From the IMG/VR virus record IMGVR_UViG_2541047828_000001: a stretch of DNA of 11,265 nucleotides. One strand, given 5' to 3'. Position numbers and translations under genes: made by a program. This document shows positions 1 to 11,265 of the stretch, one piece after another. Source of the stretch: a virus. Lineage: Duplodnaviria > Heunggongvirae > Uroviricota > Caudoviricetes. Numbering within the stretch: the stretch's first letter is position 1; every line of letters begins with the position of its first letter. The notes below the pieces were generated by a model. It was not told where the DNA came from, ran no database searches, and saw only the letters and a program-made list of their open reading frames with translations.

Positions 1-170
1 ATGATTTTCTGGTGCGTACCGGGTTGAGAAGCGGTGTAAGTGAACTGCAGTTGCCATGTTTTACGGCAGTGAGAGCAGAGATAGCGCTGATGTCCGGCGG
101 TGCTTTTGCCGTTACGCACCACCCCGTCAGTAGCTGAACAGGAGGGACAGCTGATAGAAACAGAAGCCAC
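1..170 (-). CDS. insA: IS1 InsA protein, N-terminal 56 codons (3' end cut by window edge)
   Basis: Minus-strand translation from the GTG at 168-170 gives [57 protein letters not shown], matching IS1 InsA from memory. It is absent from the ORF track only because it is under 60 codons in the window. Confidence 0.85.
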
Positions 171-225
171 TGGAGCACCTCAAAAACACCATCATACACT
201 AAATCAGTAAGTTGGCAGCATCACC
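1..225 (-). mobile_element. IS1 insertion sequence, partial (terminal ~225 bp; the rest lies beyond the window start)
   Basis: The reverse complement of 187-225 reads GGTGATGCTGCCAACTTACTGATTTAGTGTATGATGGTG, which I recognise as the IS1 terminal inverted repeat and left arm. The insA reading frame follows. The IS1 terminus is at 225. Confidence 0.85.
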
Positions 226-342
226 CACGCCCTGATGCGCACGGTGAAATGCACCAAAGCCTAAATGAATAATTCTTGGGGCCAGGTTATTACGATCATA
301 AACAGGGAGTGTCGCTTTTGCTGATAACAAATTATTTCCCAT
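226..342 (-). pseudogene. ydfI: 5' fragment (39 codons) of a mannitol-dehydrogenase-family oxidoreductase gene, interrupted by IS1
   Basis: Minus-strand ATG at 340-342, preceded by AAGGAA, translates as [39 protein letters not shown] and then runs straight into the IS1 terminus at 225. [12 protein letters not shown] is the dinucleotide-binding signature of the mannitol/mannonate dehydrogenase family. The gene symbol is inferred from K-12 synteny (ydfI next to ydfJ). Confidence 0.6.
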
Positions 343-390
343 AACAATTCCTTAAATTTAAATATGGCAAGCTATATGTTTTGTTATATG

Positions 391-424
391 AATAAAAATC
401 CCCTCTCCGGTAAGAGAAGGGATT
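391..424 (-). terminator. Intrinsic terminator downstream of ydfJ
   Basis: Inverted repeat AATCCCCTCTCC / GAGAAGGGATT (about a 10-bp stem with one G-U pair) immediately 3' of the ydfJ stop (431-433). On the minus strand it is followed by TTTTTATT. Confidence 0.55.
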
Positions 425-430
425 GAGGGT

Positions 431-1714
431 TTACAGACTTCTGGAAGGTTGCGCAGCTCTTACAACACGCGGTTGATCTTCCGCAGCGTCTTCCAGCGCA
501 CTTAAATCACGGTCTTTCACCTCTGGCATTTTCAGCGCAGAGATTAAACCAATTACTGAATATGCCATGATCATAATGGCGATCGGATACCAGGATTCCG
601 TCATGGTGCAGAAAATACCCGCCAGGATAGGACCAAAACCGGAAGCGATAAGACCACCAATTTCTTTAGAAATAGCCATCCGGGTAAAGCGGTTTTTACA
701 GCCGAACATTTCTGCCATGGTAATGTTTTCCAGAGCAAATAATCCCAGCACCGCACAGTTATGAATCACAATCAGTGCAACCATAATGGTGCTCGGGGCA
801 TAGCTTTTATCTACAATGATAGAAAGCATTGGCCATGCCAGCACAATCGCGGAGGTATTCATAATAATATACGGGATCCGGCGACCAATTTTATCGGATA
901 ACCAACCAAGGAACGGAATGGTCATAAAGCCGAGAATCGAACTAATCATCAATGCATCTGTTGGAATTGCTTTGTTAAACAATAACGTCTGCACTAAATA
1001 GCCTGCAAGGAAAGTCTGAATTAACCCGGAGTTACCCGCCTGACCAAAACGCAGCCCTGTTGCCAGCCAGAAGGATTTGCTCTGGAACATGCTACCAGCA
1101 GGTGCAGGTTTTGCTGTGGGTTGGTTGCTGTCATTAACCTTCTCAAAGACCGGGCTTTCTTTCAGATTCATACGTAACCAGATAGCAAAGACCATCACGA
1201 CAACGCTCGCCAGGAACGGTATACGCCATCCCCACGCCAGCAGTTCCTCTTTACTGAGAATGAAGAACATAAAGGCCCAGATTGCCGTTGCGCTCAAGGT
1301 TCCGCAGTTAGTTCCCATAGCTACAAATGAGGAGATAATTCCGCGCTTACCTTTTGGTGCATATTCCGCCAGCATCGTACCGGCACCGGAAATTTCCGCA
1401 CCTGCACCCAACCCCTGAATAATACGCAGCGTCACCAGCAAGATGGGGGCAAAAACACCAATCTGTGCATAGGTCGGTAACACACCAATTAAGGTGGTAC
1501 AGATCCCCATCATGGTGATGGTAATAAAGAGCACTTTTTTACGCCCTATTCTGTCGCCCATTTTGCCGAAAATAAATGCTCCGACAATACGCGCCACATA
1601 ACCTGCACCGTAGGTTCCCATTGCCAAAATTAACGCCATTGCCGTTGATGATTCAGGAAAAAATATTTCATGAAACACCAACGCTGCGCCGAGCGAATAT
1701 AACTGGAAATCCAT
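431..1714 (-). CDS. ydfJ: MFS transporter (metabolite:H+ symporter-like), 427 codons, lacking the normal N-terminal ~30 residues
   Basis: A 427-aa ORF with multiple hydrophobic segments and MFS-like motifs (GxLxDRxGRKK, GxxAEYAPxxKRG). The product starts MDFQLYSLGAALVFHEIFFP, i.e. inside the conserved (E/D)W(Y/F)DF..LYG motif that normally lies ~25-40 residues into MHS-family transporters. An in-frame TGA lies two codons upstream and there is no Shine-Dalgarno sequence. Confidence 0.8.
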   Translation of the reverse strand: MDFQLYSLGAALVFHEIFFPESSTAMALILAMGTYGAGYVARIVGAFIFGKMGDRIGRKKVLFITITMMGICTTLIGVLPTYAQIGVFAPILLVTLRIIQGLGAGAEISGAGTMLAEYAPKGKRGIISSFVAMGTNCGTLSATAIWAFMFFILSKEELLAWGWRIPFLASVVVMVFAIWLRMNLKESPVFEKVNDSNQPTAKPAPAGSMFQSKSFWLATGLRFGQAGNSGLIQTFLAGYLVQTLLFNKAIPTDALMISSILGFMTIPFLGWLSDKIGRRIPYIIMNTSAIVLAWPMLSIIVDKSYAPSTIMVALIVIHNCAVLGLFALENITMAEMFGCKNRFTRMAISKEIGGLIASGFGPILAGIFCTMTESWYPIAIMIMAYSVIGLISALKMPEVKDRDLSALEDAAEDQPRVVRAAQPSRSL

Positions 1715-2317
1715 AATTCACAGGTGTTTTTTCCCATCCTGTGGTTTCCTTGGCGTTTTCTAGGTTTTTTCAGATAGTTGCATTTTTTAAAAAGCATCCT
1801 AAGTTCGATCTCAGTGTCTATCTGGGGCCTATTTCTGTCCCATATATGCCCCAAAAAAACTCCCCAACAGATAAGTAGTTTTTTCATGGATTTATGCGTA
1901 AAATCAAGAACGGCTGGAAATCATTCAATACTCACACTATCGAAAAATTTACCAGCCAACCGCAGCACGTTCTTGCATAAGGCGTGTCTGCGGTTTTTCA
2001 ACTATTCAGATACATCACTCCCATCACATTCATTCCTCCGCATCAAAGGCATATAGGCTATATCACCTTGATATTTTTCTTTTTCAGATAAAAACTGTTA
2101 TCTATGTATACTTTTAAACCCAATCCGTGTAGAGTCTCTGCATAAGATAGTTTGCAGTTGCCGCTTCAGCTTGCGCCATAAACCGCCTGATTTTTGCTGC
2201 CACCTGTTAGCATTCCTGTATACCTGAAACGACAATGTTTATCTACGAACTTTAAGAACACCCAAGATAAAAATTGTCAACTATATCATATATAACACAT
2301 TACTAATTCGAGGCTAT

Positions 2318-2431
2318 ATGAACAGCATACTGATAATCACATCTCTCCTTATCATATTCAGCATTTTTAGTCATGCCCTAATAAAATTAGGGATTGGCAT
2401 ATCCAATAACCCAGACAAAACCGATGTATAA
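2318..2431 (+). CDS. Hypothetical 37-aa hydrophobic small protein ([37 protein letters not shown])
   Basis: ATG at 2318 with GAGG 4 nt upstream (2310-2313). Residues 3-28 are uniformly hydrophobic and the tail is polar. It ends 68 bp before the ydfK start on the same strand. Not in the ORF track because it is under 60 codons. Coding status is unproven. Confidence 0.3.
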
Positions 2432-2499
2432 GTCAACATATCCTGAATCAGACATACAATATCGCAATGAAAATCAATAATATTTTAAGGAATATCTTC

Positions 2500-2733
2500 A
2501 TGAAATCAAAAGACACCCTAAAGTGGTTCCCTGCGCAGCTTCCTGAAGTAAGAATTATCCTAGGGGATGCTGTAGTGGAAGTAGCAAAACAGGGAAGACC
2601 TATCAATACCAGAACATTGCTTGATTACATTGAAGGAAACATAAAGAAAAAATCATGGCTGGATAACAAAGAATTATTACAAACAGCGATATCAGTTCTT
2701 AAAGACAACCAAAATTTAAATGGCAAAATGTAA
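2500..2733 (+). CDS. ydfK: Small prophage protein of the YdfK/YnaE family (77 aa)
   Basis: ATG at 2500 is preceded by AAGGAA (2487-2492) with a 7-nt spacer. The ORF-track start at 2467 has no SD. The sequence MKSKDTLKWFPAQLPEVRIILGDAVVEVAKQGRPINTRTLLDYIEGNIKK is recognised from memory as the Qin/Rac YdfK/YnaE protein, and it sits between ydfJ and pin as in K-12. Confidence 0.8.
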   Translation: MKSKDTLKWFPAQLPEVRIILGDAVVEVAKQGRPINTRTLLDYIEGNIKKKSWLDNKELLQTAISVLKDNQNLNGKM

Positions 2734-3049
2734 TATAATAAACTTACTTTTTTATCATTTTTCCACTTTAACAACATTTTGCTCCACTTTTCCACGACCA
2801 AACAACTTGAAATCTGGTTAAAATAACACGCAACACTATTCTTCTTCCTTGAGTCCGCCCGGAACTCGAAAAACAAACCGAGTTAAAGCCATTTTTCACA
2901 AAATCGATTTTGGGTCTCACCAAAATTACGGGGTTGCATACGCATTCGTTTATTTTCGAACGTGTACATACAAATATGCACAAAAATAATCATAATTATT
3001 TTCTGAGATGCATTATGATATGAACACCAATTTCGTATAGAGTCTCACT

Positions 3050-3640
3050 ATGTCTCGAATTTTTGCTTACTGTCGGATATCAACGCTGGATCAGACCACC
3101 GAAAATCAACGCCGGGAAATCGAAAGTGCAGGTTTTAAAATCAAACCTCAGCAAATAATCGAAGAACACATTAGCGGCTCAGCAGCAACCAGTGAGCGTC
3201 CTGGTTTTAACCGGTTGCTTGCTCGCCTGAAATGTGGTGATCAATTGATTGTGACAAAACTGGATCGCCTTGGTTGTAATGCAATGGATATCAGGAAAAC
3301 AGTGGAACAACTGACCGAAACAGGTATCAGAGTGCATTGCTTAGCATTGGGTGGCATTGACCTGACCAGTCCAACAGGAAAAATGATGATGCAAGTAATT
3401 TCAGCAGTCGCTGAATTTGAACGAGACCTTTTACTTGAACGCACTCATTCCGGGATAGTAAGAGCCCGCGGCGCAGGGAAACGTTTTGGTCGACCACCTG
3501 TGTTAAATGAAGAACAGAAACAGGTGGTATTCGAACGAATTAAGTCAGGTGTAAGTATAAGTGCCATTGCCCGGGAATTCAAAACCTCGCGGCAAACCAT
3601 TTTAAGAGCCAAAGCAAAACTTCAGACACCTGACATATAA
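3050..3640 (+). CDS. pinQ: Pin-type serine recombinase / DNA invertase (196 aa)
   Basis: N-terminal YCRISTLDQ catalytic-serine motif (Ser11) with resolvase/invertase-fold motifs, and a C-terminal helix-turn-helix ([18 protein letters not shown]). Length and sequence match the Pin invertases of Rac and Qin from memory. The Q suffix is inferred from the ydfJ/ydfK context. Confidence 0.9.
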
Positions 3641-3737
3641 AAAATAATCTCGGTGTGAGATGCTTTACGTCTTCCAAGCCCCCTTCCTTGCCGTAAATGG
3701 AAAGATACATCTAATTATAGAATTTATATGTTTTACC

Positions 3738-3911
3738 CTACGGCAGTGCTGGCCATTCAATATCCGGTACTACTGATGTATTAACACGGTTCAGCAACAC
3801 CCGATACTTTTTCCAGACTTCTAGCAACGAAGTTTCTTCCTCCGTTGCGATTTCCAGCTCAACAACAGTCTGAACGTACCAGGAACAGCCTCCTTCAGGG
3901 CTTGAAGGATA
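3738..3911 (-). pseudogene. tfa: 3' relic of tail fibre assembly gene tfa (last ~45 codons, no start codon)
   Basis: The minus-strand frame continuing straight after the stf stop translates as [57 protein letters not shown]. From LEIAT onward it is near-identical to the C-terminus of lambda Tfa as I recall it ([39 protein letters not shown]). There is no Met or GTG start in this frame. The stop is at 3738-3740. Confidence 0.7.
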
Positions 3912-6900
3912 TCAATGTTCGCTTCCTGTTAACTGCCCGACAAGTGCAACCAGTTCGCTTACCTGATTTTCCAGAGTGCTGATCCGGGTGCCTGCTGTTG
4001 CCAGATTTTGACGTAGCGTTGTGTTTTCCTCTTCCAGCGCGGTAACGCGATCATCTGTTTCACGGGCGACCTGAACAAGTAAGCCCGTCACGGCGGCGTA
4101 GTCAACATTCAGATAACGTGTTTCTTCACGTAATTCATTGCCGTCAACCGTTGGTCCCTGCAACTCTTCACCGTAATGAGTAAACGATCCCACAGCTTCT
4201 GGTATCGCCTCCATTACTTCCTGTGCAATAACGCCAGCATAAGGCATCCCGTTTTCCCTGAGCGTGTAGGTGTATCCGTTCATTTTACGGATTGCTTTCG
4301 TCGCGTCGCTGATAACGAGAATATCGTCTTTAAGGTCGCGGTCTGATGACTGATTCAGCGTTGTGCAATTAATAGCGCCATTTACATCAAACAACTGGCC
4401 TGCTGACGTTTTTTGCGCATAAAACAGATACGCAGCAGACGTTCCAACCTCAAAAAAGTTTTGTCGAGTACTGGAACCCCACACCCTGACAGAAAACGGT
4501 AGTTCTGCATTACCTGAGTTCTGTAAAACAAAACGATTGCCAGTCCCTGATTGTTTTGTAAGGGTTAAATCAACAGTTGAGTTAACCTCATTCCTGTTGA
4601 TAGTGAGCGCCTGCGCTGTAGCCCCGTTAACAGCACCTGTTTTGAGTTGAACCGCGCCGTCATTACCATTTAACAGTATCTCAGCTCCGCTAAAGAAATT
4701 TTTTAGCGACAGCATCTTACTTACGCCGACTGATGAACCCAACGCCCACGCGAGAGAATTACCGGTGCTATCAAACCCACGTACAAAGCAATCCATTTTG
4801 CTATAGTCTGACGTGCTTCCAAGGACATCAATCCGCCCTCCGCCAGATTTTAACGGGTTAGATGTGGTTAATGACCTGACAGCAAGATCGGTGGATGAAT
4901 TTAGATCGTCTACTGTTAGTAATTTCTTCCATTCCTGCGTCGTTCCGTTTTCAACTGTTCTTCCCCAAAAACCGGAATTGCGGCCTCCGAACTGCACAGC
5001 ATAATTTTTACTAAATTGAACATGAATGCCGCCAAGAACCATAGAACCTGCCGGGCCGTTTGTACTGCCTGCGATTGGTCTAAATTTGTCGACGTTATCA
5101 GTATGCTGAGAGTTCCAGTCATGACCTGTTAATGTTGCGATTCCTGAGTTAGCTGTAATTAACCCAGACGCTTTAAGATTTTGCACATCAATTCTGTCGT
5201 TTGCGAAATTATATGCAATTGCGTTACTAACGCTTCCGGCATCATCATAATCGCGTTTCTGAATAAACCAGTCGCCAGCATTAGCAATGAGAGTATAAGT
5301 AGGCGTGTTAGCCGGGCGATCTGTTTCATTAAATCTTATTGCTGGGTTAGCGCTCCTTATTTGTAAAGGTTTTTCAACCGTTGATTTCAGTATCGCACTA
5401 TCTACAATTAAATTACCTTCTGAGTTAAGGTTTAGATATTTTGAAGCACCAGTTGAACCATCGTATGTAAACCTTATTGTTAATTGACCTGGCTCATTTG
5501 ATAAAGTCTCAACATACATATCAGCACCAAGACGCACAGTGCTGTCAGTTGCTAACAGTCTTGTATGGAGAATACCACTAGATGTGTATGTATTGGTCGA
5601 ATCACTATATCTATCAAGAAATAGACTGTTAAGTTGAGGGCTATTACTCCTGCCTAATCCAAGATTCGTTCTGGCACCATCAATAGTTGCCGCACCAGTA
5701 CCACCATGAGAAACATCAAGCGGTATCCATTTTTTTTGTGTGTCGCTGTAACACCCCCATGTTGATCCGGTTAAACCCAGGCGCATGGATTTATCATGGT
5801 TATATAACCATGTTTCGCTACTCCATTGGTCAAGACGGTCCACTTCATTTTTGCGAGCGTGGCGTGTCCATTGCGGGCCTATTGTCGGATTCCAGCGATA
5901 AGTATAAAGCGAGCGCGTAGCCCATCCCTGAAATACACCTGTATACGCTGGTGTTCCATCTACCTGACTAATAAACCCCGTAAGACTGCTTTCACCGGAT
6001 GCAATCGATGGAAAGCCTTTTGCATTACTCATAATGCGCATAAATCCGATATACCCTGATGGGTTGCCGGAAATATCAGGACAATCACGCGGTGCTGAGC
6101 CAAGACCGATATTATCGCCAACAATTAATTGCGCCTGGTTGCGATAATTAAGTGCGTCCGCCGCAGATTTCGCCGCGTTTGTTTCACTGGATTTAGCATT
6201 AGTTTCGCTGGCTTTAGCGTTGGTTTCGCTGCTCTTTGCTGCTGCCTCGCTATTTTTCGCGTTGGTTTCTGATTTTTTGGCTGCTGTCGCGGAGTTTGCC
6301 GATGCAGTTTGTGAGTCTGCTGCCGCCTGTGCGCTGTTATCCGCATTCGTCTCAGACGTTTTTGCGGCCTTCGCGGAATTTCCTGCCGCCGTTGCCGAGG
6401 AAGCTGCACTACTGGCACTTGATGATGCGTTCGTTTCTGATGATTTCGCTGCCTCTTTTGAGGCCGCCGCATCCCGGGCTGAGGTGGCAGCTTCTGACGC
6501 TTTCGTGGTCGCGGTGGATGCAGAAGTAGCTGCAGATTTTTGTGACGCTGCAGCATTCGTTTCTGACGTTTTCGCCGCACCGGCACTGGTGGCTGCCGCG
6601 CTTTTTGAGGACTCTGCAGCGGCAGCACTTTTTAATGCTTCAGTGGCCTTTGTTGATGCCGTTCCTGCGCTGGAAGATGCTGACTGAGCAGATGATGCAG
6701 CCTGTCCGGCTGACGTGCTGGCGGCACGTGCTGAGCCTGCGGCATCGGTTGCATGGGTTGCCGCCTCACAGGCAGATGTGCCGGCATCGCTGGCTGACTT
6801 CTTTGCGGCAGCCGTGTTCTGTGCCACTGCGGACGCGTTATGCGCCACCTCTTCCACCATCAGTTCAAAGCGGCGCAGTGCCTCCGGACGGGCATCATCC

Positions 6901-7184
6901 TCCGTCATGGCACCAAGAAAATCATTCAGCGTACCCGGTTGTGAGTCTTCATACACGGTGATGGTCCCGGCATGCGATGGCGGGAAGCCTTCCACCAACA
7001 GAATAACGCTGTACTGACCGTACTCAACGTCCATGCTGTAACGCCCGGCTTCATCCGGATTTTCTGAGGCCACCGTGTTCACCACCACCGTGGTGCTGTT
7101 ACGTTTTGCTTTCAGCTGGATTGTGCAGTTCTGTACCGGTTTACCTGCACCGTCTTTCAGTACACCTGAAATCTTTACTGCCAT
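3912..7184 (-). CDS. stf: Side tail fibre protein (~1090 aa) with a C-terminal intramolecular chaperone domain
   Basis: The N-terminus MAVKISGVLKDGAGKPVQNCTIQLKAKRNSTTVVVN matches lambda Stf from memory. The likely start is the ATG at 7182-7184 with GGGGTG upstream; the ORF-track start is a GTG two codons earlier. The stop is at 3912-3914. It follows lom in the lambda order J-lom-stf. Confidence 0.9.
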   Translation of the reverse strand: MAVKISGVLKDGAGKPVQNCTIQLKAKRNSTTVVVNTVASENPDEAGRYSMDVEYGQYSVILLVEGFPPSHAGTITVYEDSQPGTLNDFLGAMTEDDARPEALRRFELMVEEVAHNASAVAQNTAAAKKSASDAGTSACEAATHATDAAGSARAASTSAGQAASSAQSASSSAGTASTKATEALKSAAAAESSKSAAATSAGAAKTSETNAAASQKSAATSASTATTKASEAATSARDAAASKEAAKSSETNASSSASSAASSATAAGNSAKAAKTSETNADNSAQAAADSQTASANSATAAKKSETNAKNSEAAAKSSETNAKASETNAKSSETNAAKSAADALNYRNQAQLIVGDNIGLGSAPRDCPDISGNPSGYIGFMRIMSNAKGFPSIASGESSLTGFISQVDGTPAYTGVFQGWATRSLYTYRWNPTIGPQWTRHARKNEVDRLDQWSSETWLYNHDKSMRLGLTGSTWGCYSDTQKKWIPLDVSHGGTGAATIDGARTNLGLGRSNSPQLNSLFLDRYSDSTNTYTSSGILHTRLLATDSTVRLGADMYVETLSNEPGQLTIRFTYDGSTGASKYLNLNSEGNLIVDSAILKSTVEKPLQIRSANPAIRFNETDRPANTPTYTLIANAGDWFIQKRDYDDAGSVSNAIAYNFANDRIDVQNLKASGLITANSGIATLTGHDWNSQHTDNVDKFRPIAGSTNGPAGSMVLGGIHVQFSKNYAVQFGGRNSGFWGRTVENGTTQEWKKLLTVDDLNSSTDLAVRSLTTSNPLKSGGGRIDVLGSTSDYSKMDCFVRGFDSTGNSLAWALGSSVGVSKMLSLKNFFSGAEILLNGNDGAVQLKTGAVNGATAQALTINRNEVNSTVDLTLTKQSGTGNRFVLQNSGNAELPFSVRVWGSSTRQNFFEVGTSAAYLFYAQKTSAGQLFDVNGAINCTTLNQSSDRDLKDDILVISDATKAIRKMNGYTYTLRENGMPYAGVIAQEVMEAIPEAVGSFTHYGEELQGPTVDGNELREETRYLNVDYAAVTGLLVQVARETDDRVTALEEENTTLRQNLATAGTRISTLENQVSELVALVGQLTGSEH
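3915..4346 (-). other. Peptidase S74 / C-terminal intramolecular chaperone domain of stf (last ~144 codons)
   Basis: The C-terminal segment SDRDLKDDILVISDATKAIRKMNGYTYTLRENGMPYAGVIAQEVMEAIPEAVG fits the S74 chaperone signature (S-D-x-R-x-K ... Y ... G-x-IAQEV...P). It is followed by a heptad-like tail (RVTALEEENTTLRQNLATAGTRISTLENQVSELVALVGQL). Confidence 0.75.
6156..6839. repeat. Intragenic imperfect tandem repeats encoding the Ala/Ser/Thr-rich (K)SSETNA repeat region of Stf
   Basis: Protein residues ~118-345 are low-complexity with recurring KSSETNA, KTSETNA and SAATSA units. In the DNA this appears as reiterated gtttc/tttcgctg/gcggc motifs. This is a known feature of lambda-type Stf. Confidence 0.6.
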
Positions 7185-7190
7185 ATTCAC

Positions 7191-7222
7191 CCCACAAAAA
7201 AGCCCGCCTGAACCGGCGGGCT
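7191..7222 (-). terminator. Intrinsic terminator between lom and stf
   Basis: Minus strand reads AGCCCGCC-GGTTCA-GGCGGGCT followed by TTTTTTGTGGGG. The perfect 8-bp GC-rich stem is at plus 7201-7222 and the T-run overlaps the stf ribosome-binding site. Confidence 0.6.
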
Positions 7223-7248
7223 GTCATAACACTGTGTTACCTGGCTAA

Positions 7249-7848
7249 TCAGAACTTATAACCGACACCCACGATGAAACCGTCAGTGCGCCAGTCGCCA
7301 CTGCCGGAGCCTTCATAAGCAATATCAATGGCCACGGATTCGGTCGGGTTAAACTGCACGCCAGTCCCCCACGCCAGAGACGTGTTGCTGCGGCGACCGT
7401 CATCACTTCCGGTCAGCACTTCGTGCGTTTTCCCCTTGTTGTCAGTTACGCGGAGATAATCCCCGGAGAAAGTAGAAATACGGCTGTAAGCCACACCCGC
7501 CATCGCATACGCGCTGAACCATTCATTCACGCGCACAGACGGCCCCGCCATCACGCTGAACCAGCGGTTACGCACGGAATCTTCATGCCAGCGGGTATCG
7601 CTGTAATGAGTCAGCTGGCGATTCTTGTCTTCTGCATAGCTGAATGACGTCACCATCCCCAGCGTGTCCGTAAACTCATAACGGTATTTCACGTTAATCC
7701 CGTTAAGATCATCGCTGCCGGGAACGTTCGTCGAGGCATGAAGATACCCCGCGCTCAGCGAGGACTGATGTTCAGACGCCCATGCAGGCGCACCGGATAC
7801 GACCAGACAGATGGCTGCGGACAAAATGGCTGCACAAACTTTACGCAT
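7249..7848 (-). CDS. lom: Lom outer-membrane protein (Ail/Lom/PagC family), 199 aa
   Basis: MRKVCAAILSAAICLVVSGAPAWASEHQSSLSAGYLHASTN... has a signal peptide with AWA|SE cleavage-like site, is near-identical to lambda Lom from memory, and ends in the beta-barrel terminal YKF. GAGAGG lies upstream of the ATG at 7846-7848. Confidence 0.9.
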   Translation of the reverse strand: MRKVCAAILSAAICLVVSGAPAWASEHQSSLSAGYLHASTNVPGSDDLNGINVKYRYEFTDTLGMVTSFSYAEDKNRQLTHYSDTRWHEDSVRNRWFSVMAGPSVRVNEWFSAYAMAGVAYSRISTFSGDYLRVTDNKGKTHEVLTGSDDGRRSNTSLAWGTGVQFNPTESVAIDIAYEGSGSGDWRTDGFIVGVGYKF

Positions 7849-7869
7849 AATTACCTCTCGCTTTTCTGC

Positions 7870-7899
7870 AATAAAAAAGGCGTCATTCCTGACGCCCTT
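7870..7899 (-). terminator. Intrinsic terminator between J and lom
   Basis: Minus strand reads GGCGTCA-GGAA-TGACGCC followed by TTTTTTATT, immediately after the J stop at 7919-7921. Confidence 0.6.
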
Positions 7900-7918
7900 T
7901 ATTGGGGTTATAACAATT

Positions 7919-10900
7919 TCAACGAATACTGATACCGGAAGCAGCCTTTTTGGTCACAATCACCGTACAGTCGGTGATATTGCCTGCCCCCTGATTGCCT
8001 TTCTGGAAAATCTTAAACTCCAGAGTGACGCTTCCCCTGCCACTCGGCATATCAATAACCGCACTGTAACTACCGGGAATGGCCCCTTTAGTTTCTCTGG
8101 ATGCGATTAATACGCCGTTTTTGCGAACTTCAAAACCATACCCCGTGTACCTTGTACCTCCCGGGTTATCACCACTTCCCGGATCGTCATACGCTATACC
8201 GTTAAAGATAATGGGCGGAATAATGATTTGACGGTCAAAGTTATGATCATCGCTGATGGTGACTGTAACCGTCCCGTCTGGTGTTTCCGTATTACCCCAC
8301 GTACCAGCCTGTTTCGGGAATGATTTGGATACTGTTTTAACAAAATCACCTCTGACCTGATTCGCCTCCAGCATGCCCTTAATCGTACAGTTTTCATTTA
8401 TCGTGACGTTGTTGAGCGTCCCGGAGTTCGCATTCACACTGCCACTGATATCCGCATTTTTAGCGGTCAGCTTTCCGTCCGGTGTCAGGGAAAATACCGG
8501 TGGATTTCCACCACTGGTAATGGTGGGGGCCGTCAGACGTTTGAGGAACACGTCGTTCATGAATATCTGGTTGCCCTGCGCCACAAACATCGGCGTTTCA
8601 TTCCCGTTTGCCGGGTCAATAAACGCGATACGGTTAGCAGCAACCAGAAACTGGCTCAGTTTGCCTTCCTCTGTATCCTCCATGCTGAGGCCAAGCCCCG
8701 CGACATAATGTTTGCCGTCTTTGGTCTGCTCAATTTTGACGCCCCACATGGCATTCCATTTATCGTTGGCGTCTTTCCACTCTTTCGAAAACTCCTCCAG
8801 TCTGCTGGCGTTATCCTCCGTCAGGTCGACTTTTTCCAGCAGCTCCTTGCCGAGATGGGATTCGGTTATCTGGCCTTTGAAAAAATCCAGGTAACCTTCC
8901 GCATCATCGCTCGCCCGACCGACGGCCTCCACGAATGTCGATTTGCCAACGGTGTTCACACTGCGGATATAAAAGTAATAATCATGGCCCGGTTTGATAT
9001 TGATACTGGCGGCTATCCAGTACAGCGCCGTACCAAGATAGCGGGCTGTGGTTTCAACCTGCCTGATATCGGTAATCCGCTTTTCCGAGAACCAGAACTC
9101 AAACTGTACTGTCGGGTCATAAACGGCAAGATGCGGCGTGGCGGTTATCTGAAAATAGCCCGGCGTCAGCTCAATCCTCGACGGTGTTGCCGGTGCGGCA
9201 ATCCGGAACGATACCGACGCCGGATCGCCCTGCTGTCCCCACGCATTTACCGCCCGGACTGTCAGCGTGTAGTTCCCCAGCGCCAGTTGCGTGAAGCGGT
9301 ATGTGGTTTCCGTCGTCCGGGCCGTGCTGACCAGCCGCTCACTGCCGTCATCCGCTGCCACGGTCAGGCGAAGCATAAAGCTCACCCCCTTCACCACCTT
9401 CGGCGTGTCCCAGCGCGCCAGCACCTGATATTCCCCGCTGTCTGCGGTGACTTCGGCAGTCAGGTGCTGCACCGCTGGCGGCGTGACACCATTCACCGTG
9501 CCGCTCTGGTCGCCGTCAAAGTGCGCCCCGTTATCCACGATGGCCTCTTTTTCCGGTACATGCTGCACGGCGGTGATGGCATACGTGCCGTCATCGTTCT
9601 CACGGATACTCACGCAGCGGAACAGACGCTGGCGCAGCGTCGGCAGCTTCAGCCCCCATACGCTGTATCCGGCAACGCCGTCAGGAACACGGCTCACTTT
9701 TACCTTCACGCCGTCGGTGACGGACTGGACCTCCACGCTGACCGGATTGCCACTTCCGTCAACCAGGCTTATCAGCGTGGTACCGGAGGATGGCAGCGTG
9801 ATTTCACGGTCGAGCGTCAGCGTCCGGGTCTGGCTGTTCACCGCCAGCACGCGCCCGCCGGTGCTGATCCCCGCATAGTCATCATCGCAGATTTCAATAA
9901 CATCACCCGGCACATGGCGAAGCCCTTCGGCACCCACGCTGAAATCCACGGTCTGCGTCTCCAGCAGCTCCGTTTTAATCAGCCACAGCCCGGCGCGGTG
10001 TGCCTGCCCCCGGCAGGTACAGCCAAAGGCATCCATCTTCGTAACATTACGACCGTAACGGGCAATGGCCTGCGTATCTTCAACAAGCTCTGTCGCCGTC
10101 TCCCAGCCGTTGTTCGGGTCAATCCAGTTCACCTCAACGGCATTATGGCGGTCCTTCAGGGCGCTGAAGCTGTAGCGGAACGGCGCGCCATCATCCGGCA
10201 TCACCACATTACTGCGGTTATAGGTCCACACCTTATCCGACGGTCGGTCCTGCACGAACGTCAGCGTCTGCCCGTTCCATACCGGCATACAGCGCATCGC
10301 CGAGCAGAAATCACTGAGCACATCCCACGCCTTGCGCTGTGTGGTCAGGTACGCATTACAGGTGATGCGCGGCTCCGTGCCGCCAAAGCCGTCCGGCACT
10401 GACTGGTCGCAGTACTGGCCGATGACATACAGCGCCCATTTATCCACATCCGCCGCACCAAGACGTTTCCCCATGCCGTAGCGCGGATGGGTCAGCATAT
10501 CCCACAGACACCAGGCCATGTTGTTGCTGTATGCCGGTTTAAACGTTCCGTCCCAGATACCGCTGTATTGCCGCGTCTGCGGGTTATAATTCGACGGCAC
10601 CTGCAGAATACGCCCGCGCAGATGATAATTACGGCTCACCTGCTGGCTGCCGAACTGCTCCGAGTCCACCTGCACGCCGACCAGTGCCGTGTTCGGGTAG
10701 CACTGTTTCACATCGATGATTTCGGTGTATGACGACCAGAGCGTTTTGTTCTGCAGCTGGTCTGTGGTGCTGTCCGGCGTCATCCTGCGCATCCGGATAT
10801 TAAACGGGCGCGGCGGCAGGTTATCCACCACCACCGAGGCCAGATACTGCGACGTGGTTTTGCCCTTAATGGTGATGTCTTTTTCCGTCACCCAGCCACC

Positions 10901-11265
10901 ATTACGCTGTATCTGAACCAGCAGGCGGACTTCCGACGGATTCCGATCACCCTTTGAGGTGGTTTCCACCAGTGCCTGCACGCCGAAAGTAAAACGCAGA
11001 CGGTCAATGTTTGCCGACGTGATGGTCCGGGTGATCGGCGTGTCATATTTCACTTCCGTACCCAGCACCGTCTCGGAGCCGGAGGATTCAAATCCCTCCG
11101 GCGGTGTCTGCTCCTGCTCACCTGCCCGGAACACCACCGTGACGCCGGAGATATTGGTATTCCCCTCACTGTCCAGCACCGGCGTACTGTTCAGCAGCAC
11201 GCTTTTTAATCCATCCACCGGACCTTCAACCGGCCCTTCGCTGATGGCATCGATCACACTCAGCA
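7919..11265 (-). CDS. J: Tail tip / host-specificity protein J (central tail fibre), 5'-partial; ~20 N-terminal codons lie beyond the window end
   Basis: A 1112-codon frame that is essentially collinear with lambda J from memory ([28 protein letters not shown]...). The apparent start at 11257 is an internal GTG; the frame stays open to the window edge (..LSVIDAIS). The last ~150 residues diverge from lambda J. Confidence 0.9.

Follow-up and report, generated by a model that had tools for sequence, protein, structure and literature searches.

The window analysed here, the whole 11,265-nucleotide stretch of the caudovirus record IMGVR_UViG_2541047828_000001 in IMG/VR, begins inside a copy of the insertion sequence IS1, continues through the start of the dehydrogenase gene ydfI and the transporter gene ydfJ, and runs on to its last base as one arm of a lambdoid prophage (Table 1).

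Table 1. Features of the window, with strand and the evidence for each
Feature	Position	Strand	Evidence
IS1 left 225 nt, IS1A type	1..225	-	100% identity with nt 1-225 of annotated 768-bp IS1A copies
insA 5' part: first 56 codons, zinc-ribbon domain, GTG start at 170	1..170	-	Translation and profile matches
Chimeric 47-codon ORF: 39 YdfI codons, 8 IS1-repeat codons and stop	199..342	-	ORF list, translation
IS1 left terminal inverted repeat (IRL), GGTGATGCTGCCAACTTACTGAT	203..225	-	Direct read
9-bp target-site duplication, one copy: CACGCCCTG on the plus strand, CAGGGCGTG on the gene strand; ydfI nt 109-117, codons 37-39	226..234		
ydfI codons 1-39, including the dinucleotide-binding loop	226..342	-	K-12 ydfI alignment and Pfam Mannitol_dh
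Terminator-like hairpin between ydfJ and ydfI, 12-pair stem, T-rich tail	397..424	-	Consensus scan, pattern match only
ydfJ, MHS-family MFS transporter, N-terminus missing, prophage in 5' end	431..1714	-	Pfam MFS_1/Sugar_tr
Lambdoid prophage arm at the Qin/ydfJ site: ynfT, ydfK, pin invertase, side tail fibre, lom, J	1706..11265		K-12 colinearity, mEp460 identity, Pfam

Read on the minus strand from 225 to 1, the window opens with the 23-bp left terminal repeat of IS1, and the copies with which its left 225 nt were compared are annotated 768-bp IS1A elements in complete E. coli genomes. The N-terminus of InsA encoded there scored 42.4 bits, against a cutoff of 28, with the NCBIfam profile for the IS1/IS1595 zinc domain, and this part of insA also matched the NCBIfam IS1 transposase profile. 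The border between element and host lies between positions 225 and 226, so that ydfI is broken after codon 39 (Val, GTG). A preliminary description of this DNA had put the IS1 terminus at 225 and the cut in ydfI at 226, and both the direct read and the alignment with IS1A agree with it to the base.

On the host side of this border, the first 117 nt of the interrupted reading frame aligned with nt 1-117 of K-12 ydfI with four substitutions and no indel, which bears out the proposal that 226-342 is the start of a gene of the mannitol dehydrogenase family. The 39-residue fragment matched the start of the Rossmann domain in Pfam Mannitol_dh (profile positions 2-18, E 7.8e-4), with a score below the gathering threshold because only 17 residues are left to align. 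The eight IS1-encoded residues that end the chimeric ORF are GDAANLLI, followed by a stop codon at 201..199.

The neighbouring transporter gene ydfJ, which the literature describes as a common integration site of lambdoid prophages, codes for a protein without its 30-40 N-terminal residues, since a lambdoid prophage occupies the 5' end of the gene; in K-12, Qin does the same and cuts ydfJ at the same point. Matches to the ShiA and ProP profiles begin only at positions 37-40, and in other strains RefSeq tags the gene as 'missing N-terminus'. This transporter partner of ydfI was already broken before IS1 arrived. The terminator-like hairpin between the two genes suggests that ydfI is perhaps not simply co-transcribed with ydfJ; no consensus match for a ydfI-specific promoter was seen on that strand between the hairpin and the ydfI start.

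In the K-12 annotation, the cryptic prophage Qin ends at the equivalent of window position 1706, about 1.5 kb from the IS1 junction, and ydfI does therefore lie next to a prophage end, as had been claimed. Window positions 226-3857 are colinear with K-12 ydfI(5')-ydfJ-ynfT-ydfK-pinQ at 98.9% identity, and 73-74% of the prophage arm aligns with phage mEp460 at about 96% identity. The K-12 Qin prophage has lost its tail genes, whereas the arm described here goes on to a complete side tail fibre gene, lom and J and resembles mEp460. Colinearity with K-12 stops at 3857, within the 3' end of K-12 tfaQ. A Pin-type serine invertase gene (3050-3640, plus strand) lies beside the gene for a 1092-residue side tail fibre (3912-7190, minus strand), with 3641-3911 between them; the fibre ends in a Peptidase_S74 chaperone domain, and no tail-fibre assembly gene is present. 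A search for an invertible segment on which the invertase might act gave only weak inverted repeats, the best of 24 nt at 83%, and the region near 3857 looks like a mosaic joint that left the invertase with no segment to invert.

The other side of the IS1 element was found by an exact lookup of the 47-residue junction peptide in public assemblies. This product occurred on only three contigs of the public collection, one of which is a 2.1-Mb NCBI scaffold (GCA_000459055.1, KE700843.1; locus L001) and another a contig of the Logan assembly of run SRR770163 (L002) with the same junction. That run may hold reads of the same isolate, in which case the Logan contig is an independent assembly and not an independent strain. 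The reverse complement of the window is L001 1-10342, with 0 mismatches over 10,342 nt, and window base 1 directly adjoins a run of 560 N (L001 10343-10902). The window thus begins inside IS1 because the assembly breaks there, the contig ending in a collapsed repeat.

After the gap, L001 resumes with 205 nt that match the right end of IS1 at every position and finish with ...GGAGTCATTACC. The right terminal repeat (IRR), GGTAATGACTCCAACTTATTGAT at L001 11085-11107, pairs with the IRL GGTGATGCTGCCAACTTACTGAT at window 225..203, and both repeats are identical to those of annotated IS1A copies. The right end is followed by CAGGGCGTG and then by TATGCCGAT..., so that CAGGGCGTG occurs twice in L001, at 10109-10117 before the left end and at 11108-11116 after the right end. 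Since the bases beside each copy do not lengthen the repeat, the duplication is exactly 9 bp. The sequence had been expected to continue leftward as IS1 to its other end, with a target duplication of 8-9 bp matching 226-234, and L001 holds both the right end and an exact second copy of the 9-mer.

The two visible pieces of the element (225 and 205 nt, 430 nt together) are each 100% identical to complete 768-bp IS1A copies, and completing such an element takes 338 nt where the L001 gap is written as 560 N. We infer that the middle is ordinary IS1: it is an N gap in the only spanning scaffold, and both the 768-bp length and the insA/insB' frameshift site are given here by expectation. Likewise, the two contigs were joined by scaffolding, and it is the match of the 9-bp repeat together with the exact resumption of ydfI that ties the two junctions to one event. 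Pfam Zn_ribbon_InsA and DDE_Tnp_IS1 were found on two gene fragments on either side of the gap, around which gene callers give spurious ORFs of 47, 56, 62 and 448 residues.

The element is a member of the IS1 family, with imperfect terminal repeats of about 23 bp, a 9-bp target duplication and the insA/insB' frames all observed. Its terminal repeats, insA start and insB' 3' end are identical in the window and L001 to those of annotated 768-bp IS1A, and it shares the 9-bp direct repeat and the disruption of a gene with IS1A/IS1B of E. coli K-12 and Shigella. The insertion does not differ in kind from known IS1 insertions, and what is particular to it is the target, ydfI nt 109-117. Three IS1 left-end junctions, in data comprising window 226-234 and locus L006, abut host DNA ending in CGTG (CAGGGCGTG, GAAACCGTG and TTGAGCGTG), a sample too small to speak of a target preference.

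When IS1 and one copy of the repeat are taken out, an open ydfI of 1461 nt and 486 codons is restored in frame. It differs from the K-12 gene by 29 substitutions (about 98% nucleotide identity), with no indel and no internal stop, and carries no lesion apart from IS1. Compared with the intact annotated gene of E. coli strain 190 (CP020520.1), only 1 of the 1461 nt differs; CAGGGCGTG is present there as a single copy (nt 109-117), and strain 190 therefore represents the empty site. The reconstructed protein scored 645.5 bits, against a cutoff of 603, with NCBIfam NF011611, the fructuronate reductase subfamily, a name that gives function at the level of annotation only, and the downstream fragment in L001 matched Pfam Mannitol_dh and Mannitol_dh_C. 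Two further predictions, that the ydfI frame resumes beyond IS1 and that the gene encodes a dehydrogenase, hold as well: the 486-residue frame is colinear with K-12 YdfI, and its family is that of the mannitol dehydrogenases. Judging by position and sequence, the gene is the orthologue of K-12 ydfI, with ydfJ and ydfZ as neighbours in both, and it is intact in K-12 and split by IS1 here. We take YdfI to be a UxuB paralogue that may have a connection with the rsp genes close by.

We are highly confident that a single 768-bp IS1 of the IS1A type transposed into ydfI and disrupted the enzyme gene, a reading built on direct observation of the two junctions, the 9-bp duplication, the restored frame, the empty site and the conserved gene order. 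The transposase would have cut ydfI at nt 109-117 (codons 37-39, CAGGGCGTG) with a stagger of 9 bp, and gap repair would have left a copy of these 9 bp at either end of the element, which has the same orientation as ydfI. Such a direct target repeat flanking IS1 is the signature of simple transposition. Translation from the ydfI start would then pass through 39 codons of the gene and eight codons of the IS1 repeat to a stop, yielding a 47-residue peptide that would hold only the first strand and the glycine loop of the NAD-binding Rossmann fold. Because the remaining 447 codons would be left with neither promoter nor start codon context nor ribosome-binding site, and without the cofactor-binding loop, the enzyme is probably lost and YdfI should be inactive in this strain. 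A 448-residue ORF is called from the GTG of the duplicated Val39 codon, and its product would be without the NAD-binding loop. The preliminary description had spoken of a clean insertional inactivation, and the junctions, the duplication and the frame support this, the loss of activity being what they would predict. IS1 insertions are strongly polar, as known from classical work; no polar effect is expected here because ydfI has no gene downstream of it on the same strand; ydfZ, which comes next, points towards it. It is plausible that the loss of ydfI carried no fitness cost, given that its partner gene ydfJ had already been truncated by the prophage.

To place the insertion among other E. 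coli, we compared the junction with complete genomes and found the exact junction in none of 5,426 (0/5,426). The three records with at least 80% coverage proved to be two-piece matches with IS1 at other positions. Window 226-1800 is matched at 100% identity by many complete genomes in which ydfI is intact. With no other lesion in ydfI, an empty site in close relatives and no copy of the junction among the 5,426 genomes, the insertion is recent and confined to one lineage or strain. A remark that a high IS1 load with gene decay of this kind is typical of Shigella is unneeded, since E. coli genomes match the flanks at 100% identity. Our search of the literature on ydfI and ydfJ found no report of this insertion.

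At least three complete E. coli genomes do carry other insertions of IS1 in the first 330 nt of ydfI, all in the same orientation. In isolate J31 (CP053787.1) the element lies at ydfI nt 190-197 with a target repeat of 8 bp, and in CUWW10 (CP182145.1) at nt 316-324 with a target repeat of 9 bp. In EC09 (CM169492.1; L005) IS1 stands at nt 73, and 258 nt of ydfI nt 73-332 are missing beside its right end, with no target duplication, which is the pattern expected of an adjacent deletion promoted by IS1, a type of event that the preliminary description had raised for the present copy and that is met in a different strain. The positions differ among the three genomes, which makes them independent events; the gene, the element and the orientation are as in the present insertion, and its junction is in none of them. 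More broadly, a left end of IS1 on the same strand occurs no more than 1.4 kb from this segment in about 37 of the 5,426 complete genomes, and some 26 would be expected from about 58,500 chromosomal IS1 copies spread evenly over genomes of about 5 Mb, a rough comparison that ignores shared ancestry. The idea of ydfI as a hotspot for IS1 was dropped, the number seen being near the uniform expectation.

Several other explanations of the junction were weighed. Because the window ends inside IS1 exactly at a scaffold gap, and assemblers fail at repeats, the junction might be the chimeric end of a contig at a collapsed repeat, with ydfI really intact. However, the NCBI scaffold and the Logan contig agree on the junction, the other contig has the complementary junction with the duplicated 9-mer, and an artefact would not yield a precise 9-bp duplication with exact resumption of the frame, so that we find this explanation hardly credible. 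Some 220 nt of the 560 N are surplus to a single IS1, and the unsequenced gap could in principle hide more than one element, whether a tandem pair, a composite with cargo or an IS1 split by another element. A second IS1 would add at least 768 nt, though, and both visible ends are oriented as parts of one element with a normal 9-bp duplication; additional DNA of this sort is very unlikely.

IS1 is also known to promote adjacent deletions and inversions, and the loss seen in EC09 fits such a change in this same gene. The element could then mark a rearrangement (an adjacent deletion, an inversion between two IS1 copies or a cointegrate), and the DNA beyond it would not be ydfI. In L001, on the contrary, the 9-mer stands after the right end, all of ydfI nt 109-1461 is there, and ydfZ, rspR, ydfG and dcp come next in K-12 order. 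Matching direct repeats would not remain after a deletion or inversion, which makes a rearrangement extremely improbable. The gene order across the locus, ydfJ-[ydfI::IS1]-ydfZ-rspR-ydfG-dcp, is that of K-12, and the deletion or inversion of the prophage arm that, it was suggested, this IS1 copy could mediate has not taken place here, given that the order is kept on both sides.

Simple transposition of one IS1 into ydfI is thus a textbook case of insertional inactivation of a dispensable gene, a known kind of event with no unusual feature, and it is already visible in the public assembly GCA_000459055.1. It is conceivable, though we think it rather unlikely, that ydfI has been struck repeatedly by IS1 because its loss became neutral or favoured once the prophage had cut ydfJ. 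If this were true, ydfJ-ydfI would be a sugar-acid module in decay, with one more independent loss in this strain. Beyond annotation the significance is small: ydfI should be annotated here as an IS1-interrupted pseudogene, and the 47-codon and 448-codon ORFs beside the element should not be counted as genes. The case also illustrates a way past a contig that breaks off in IS1, the lookup of a chimeric junction peptide having led to the far side of the element. Being present on only those three public contigs, the junction can serve strain typing as a rare marker of a lineage.
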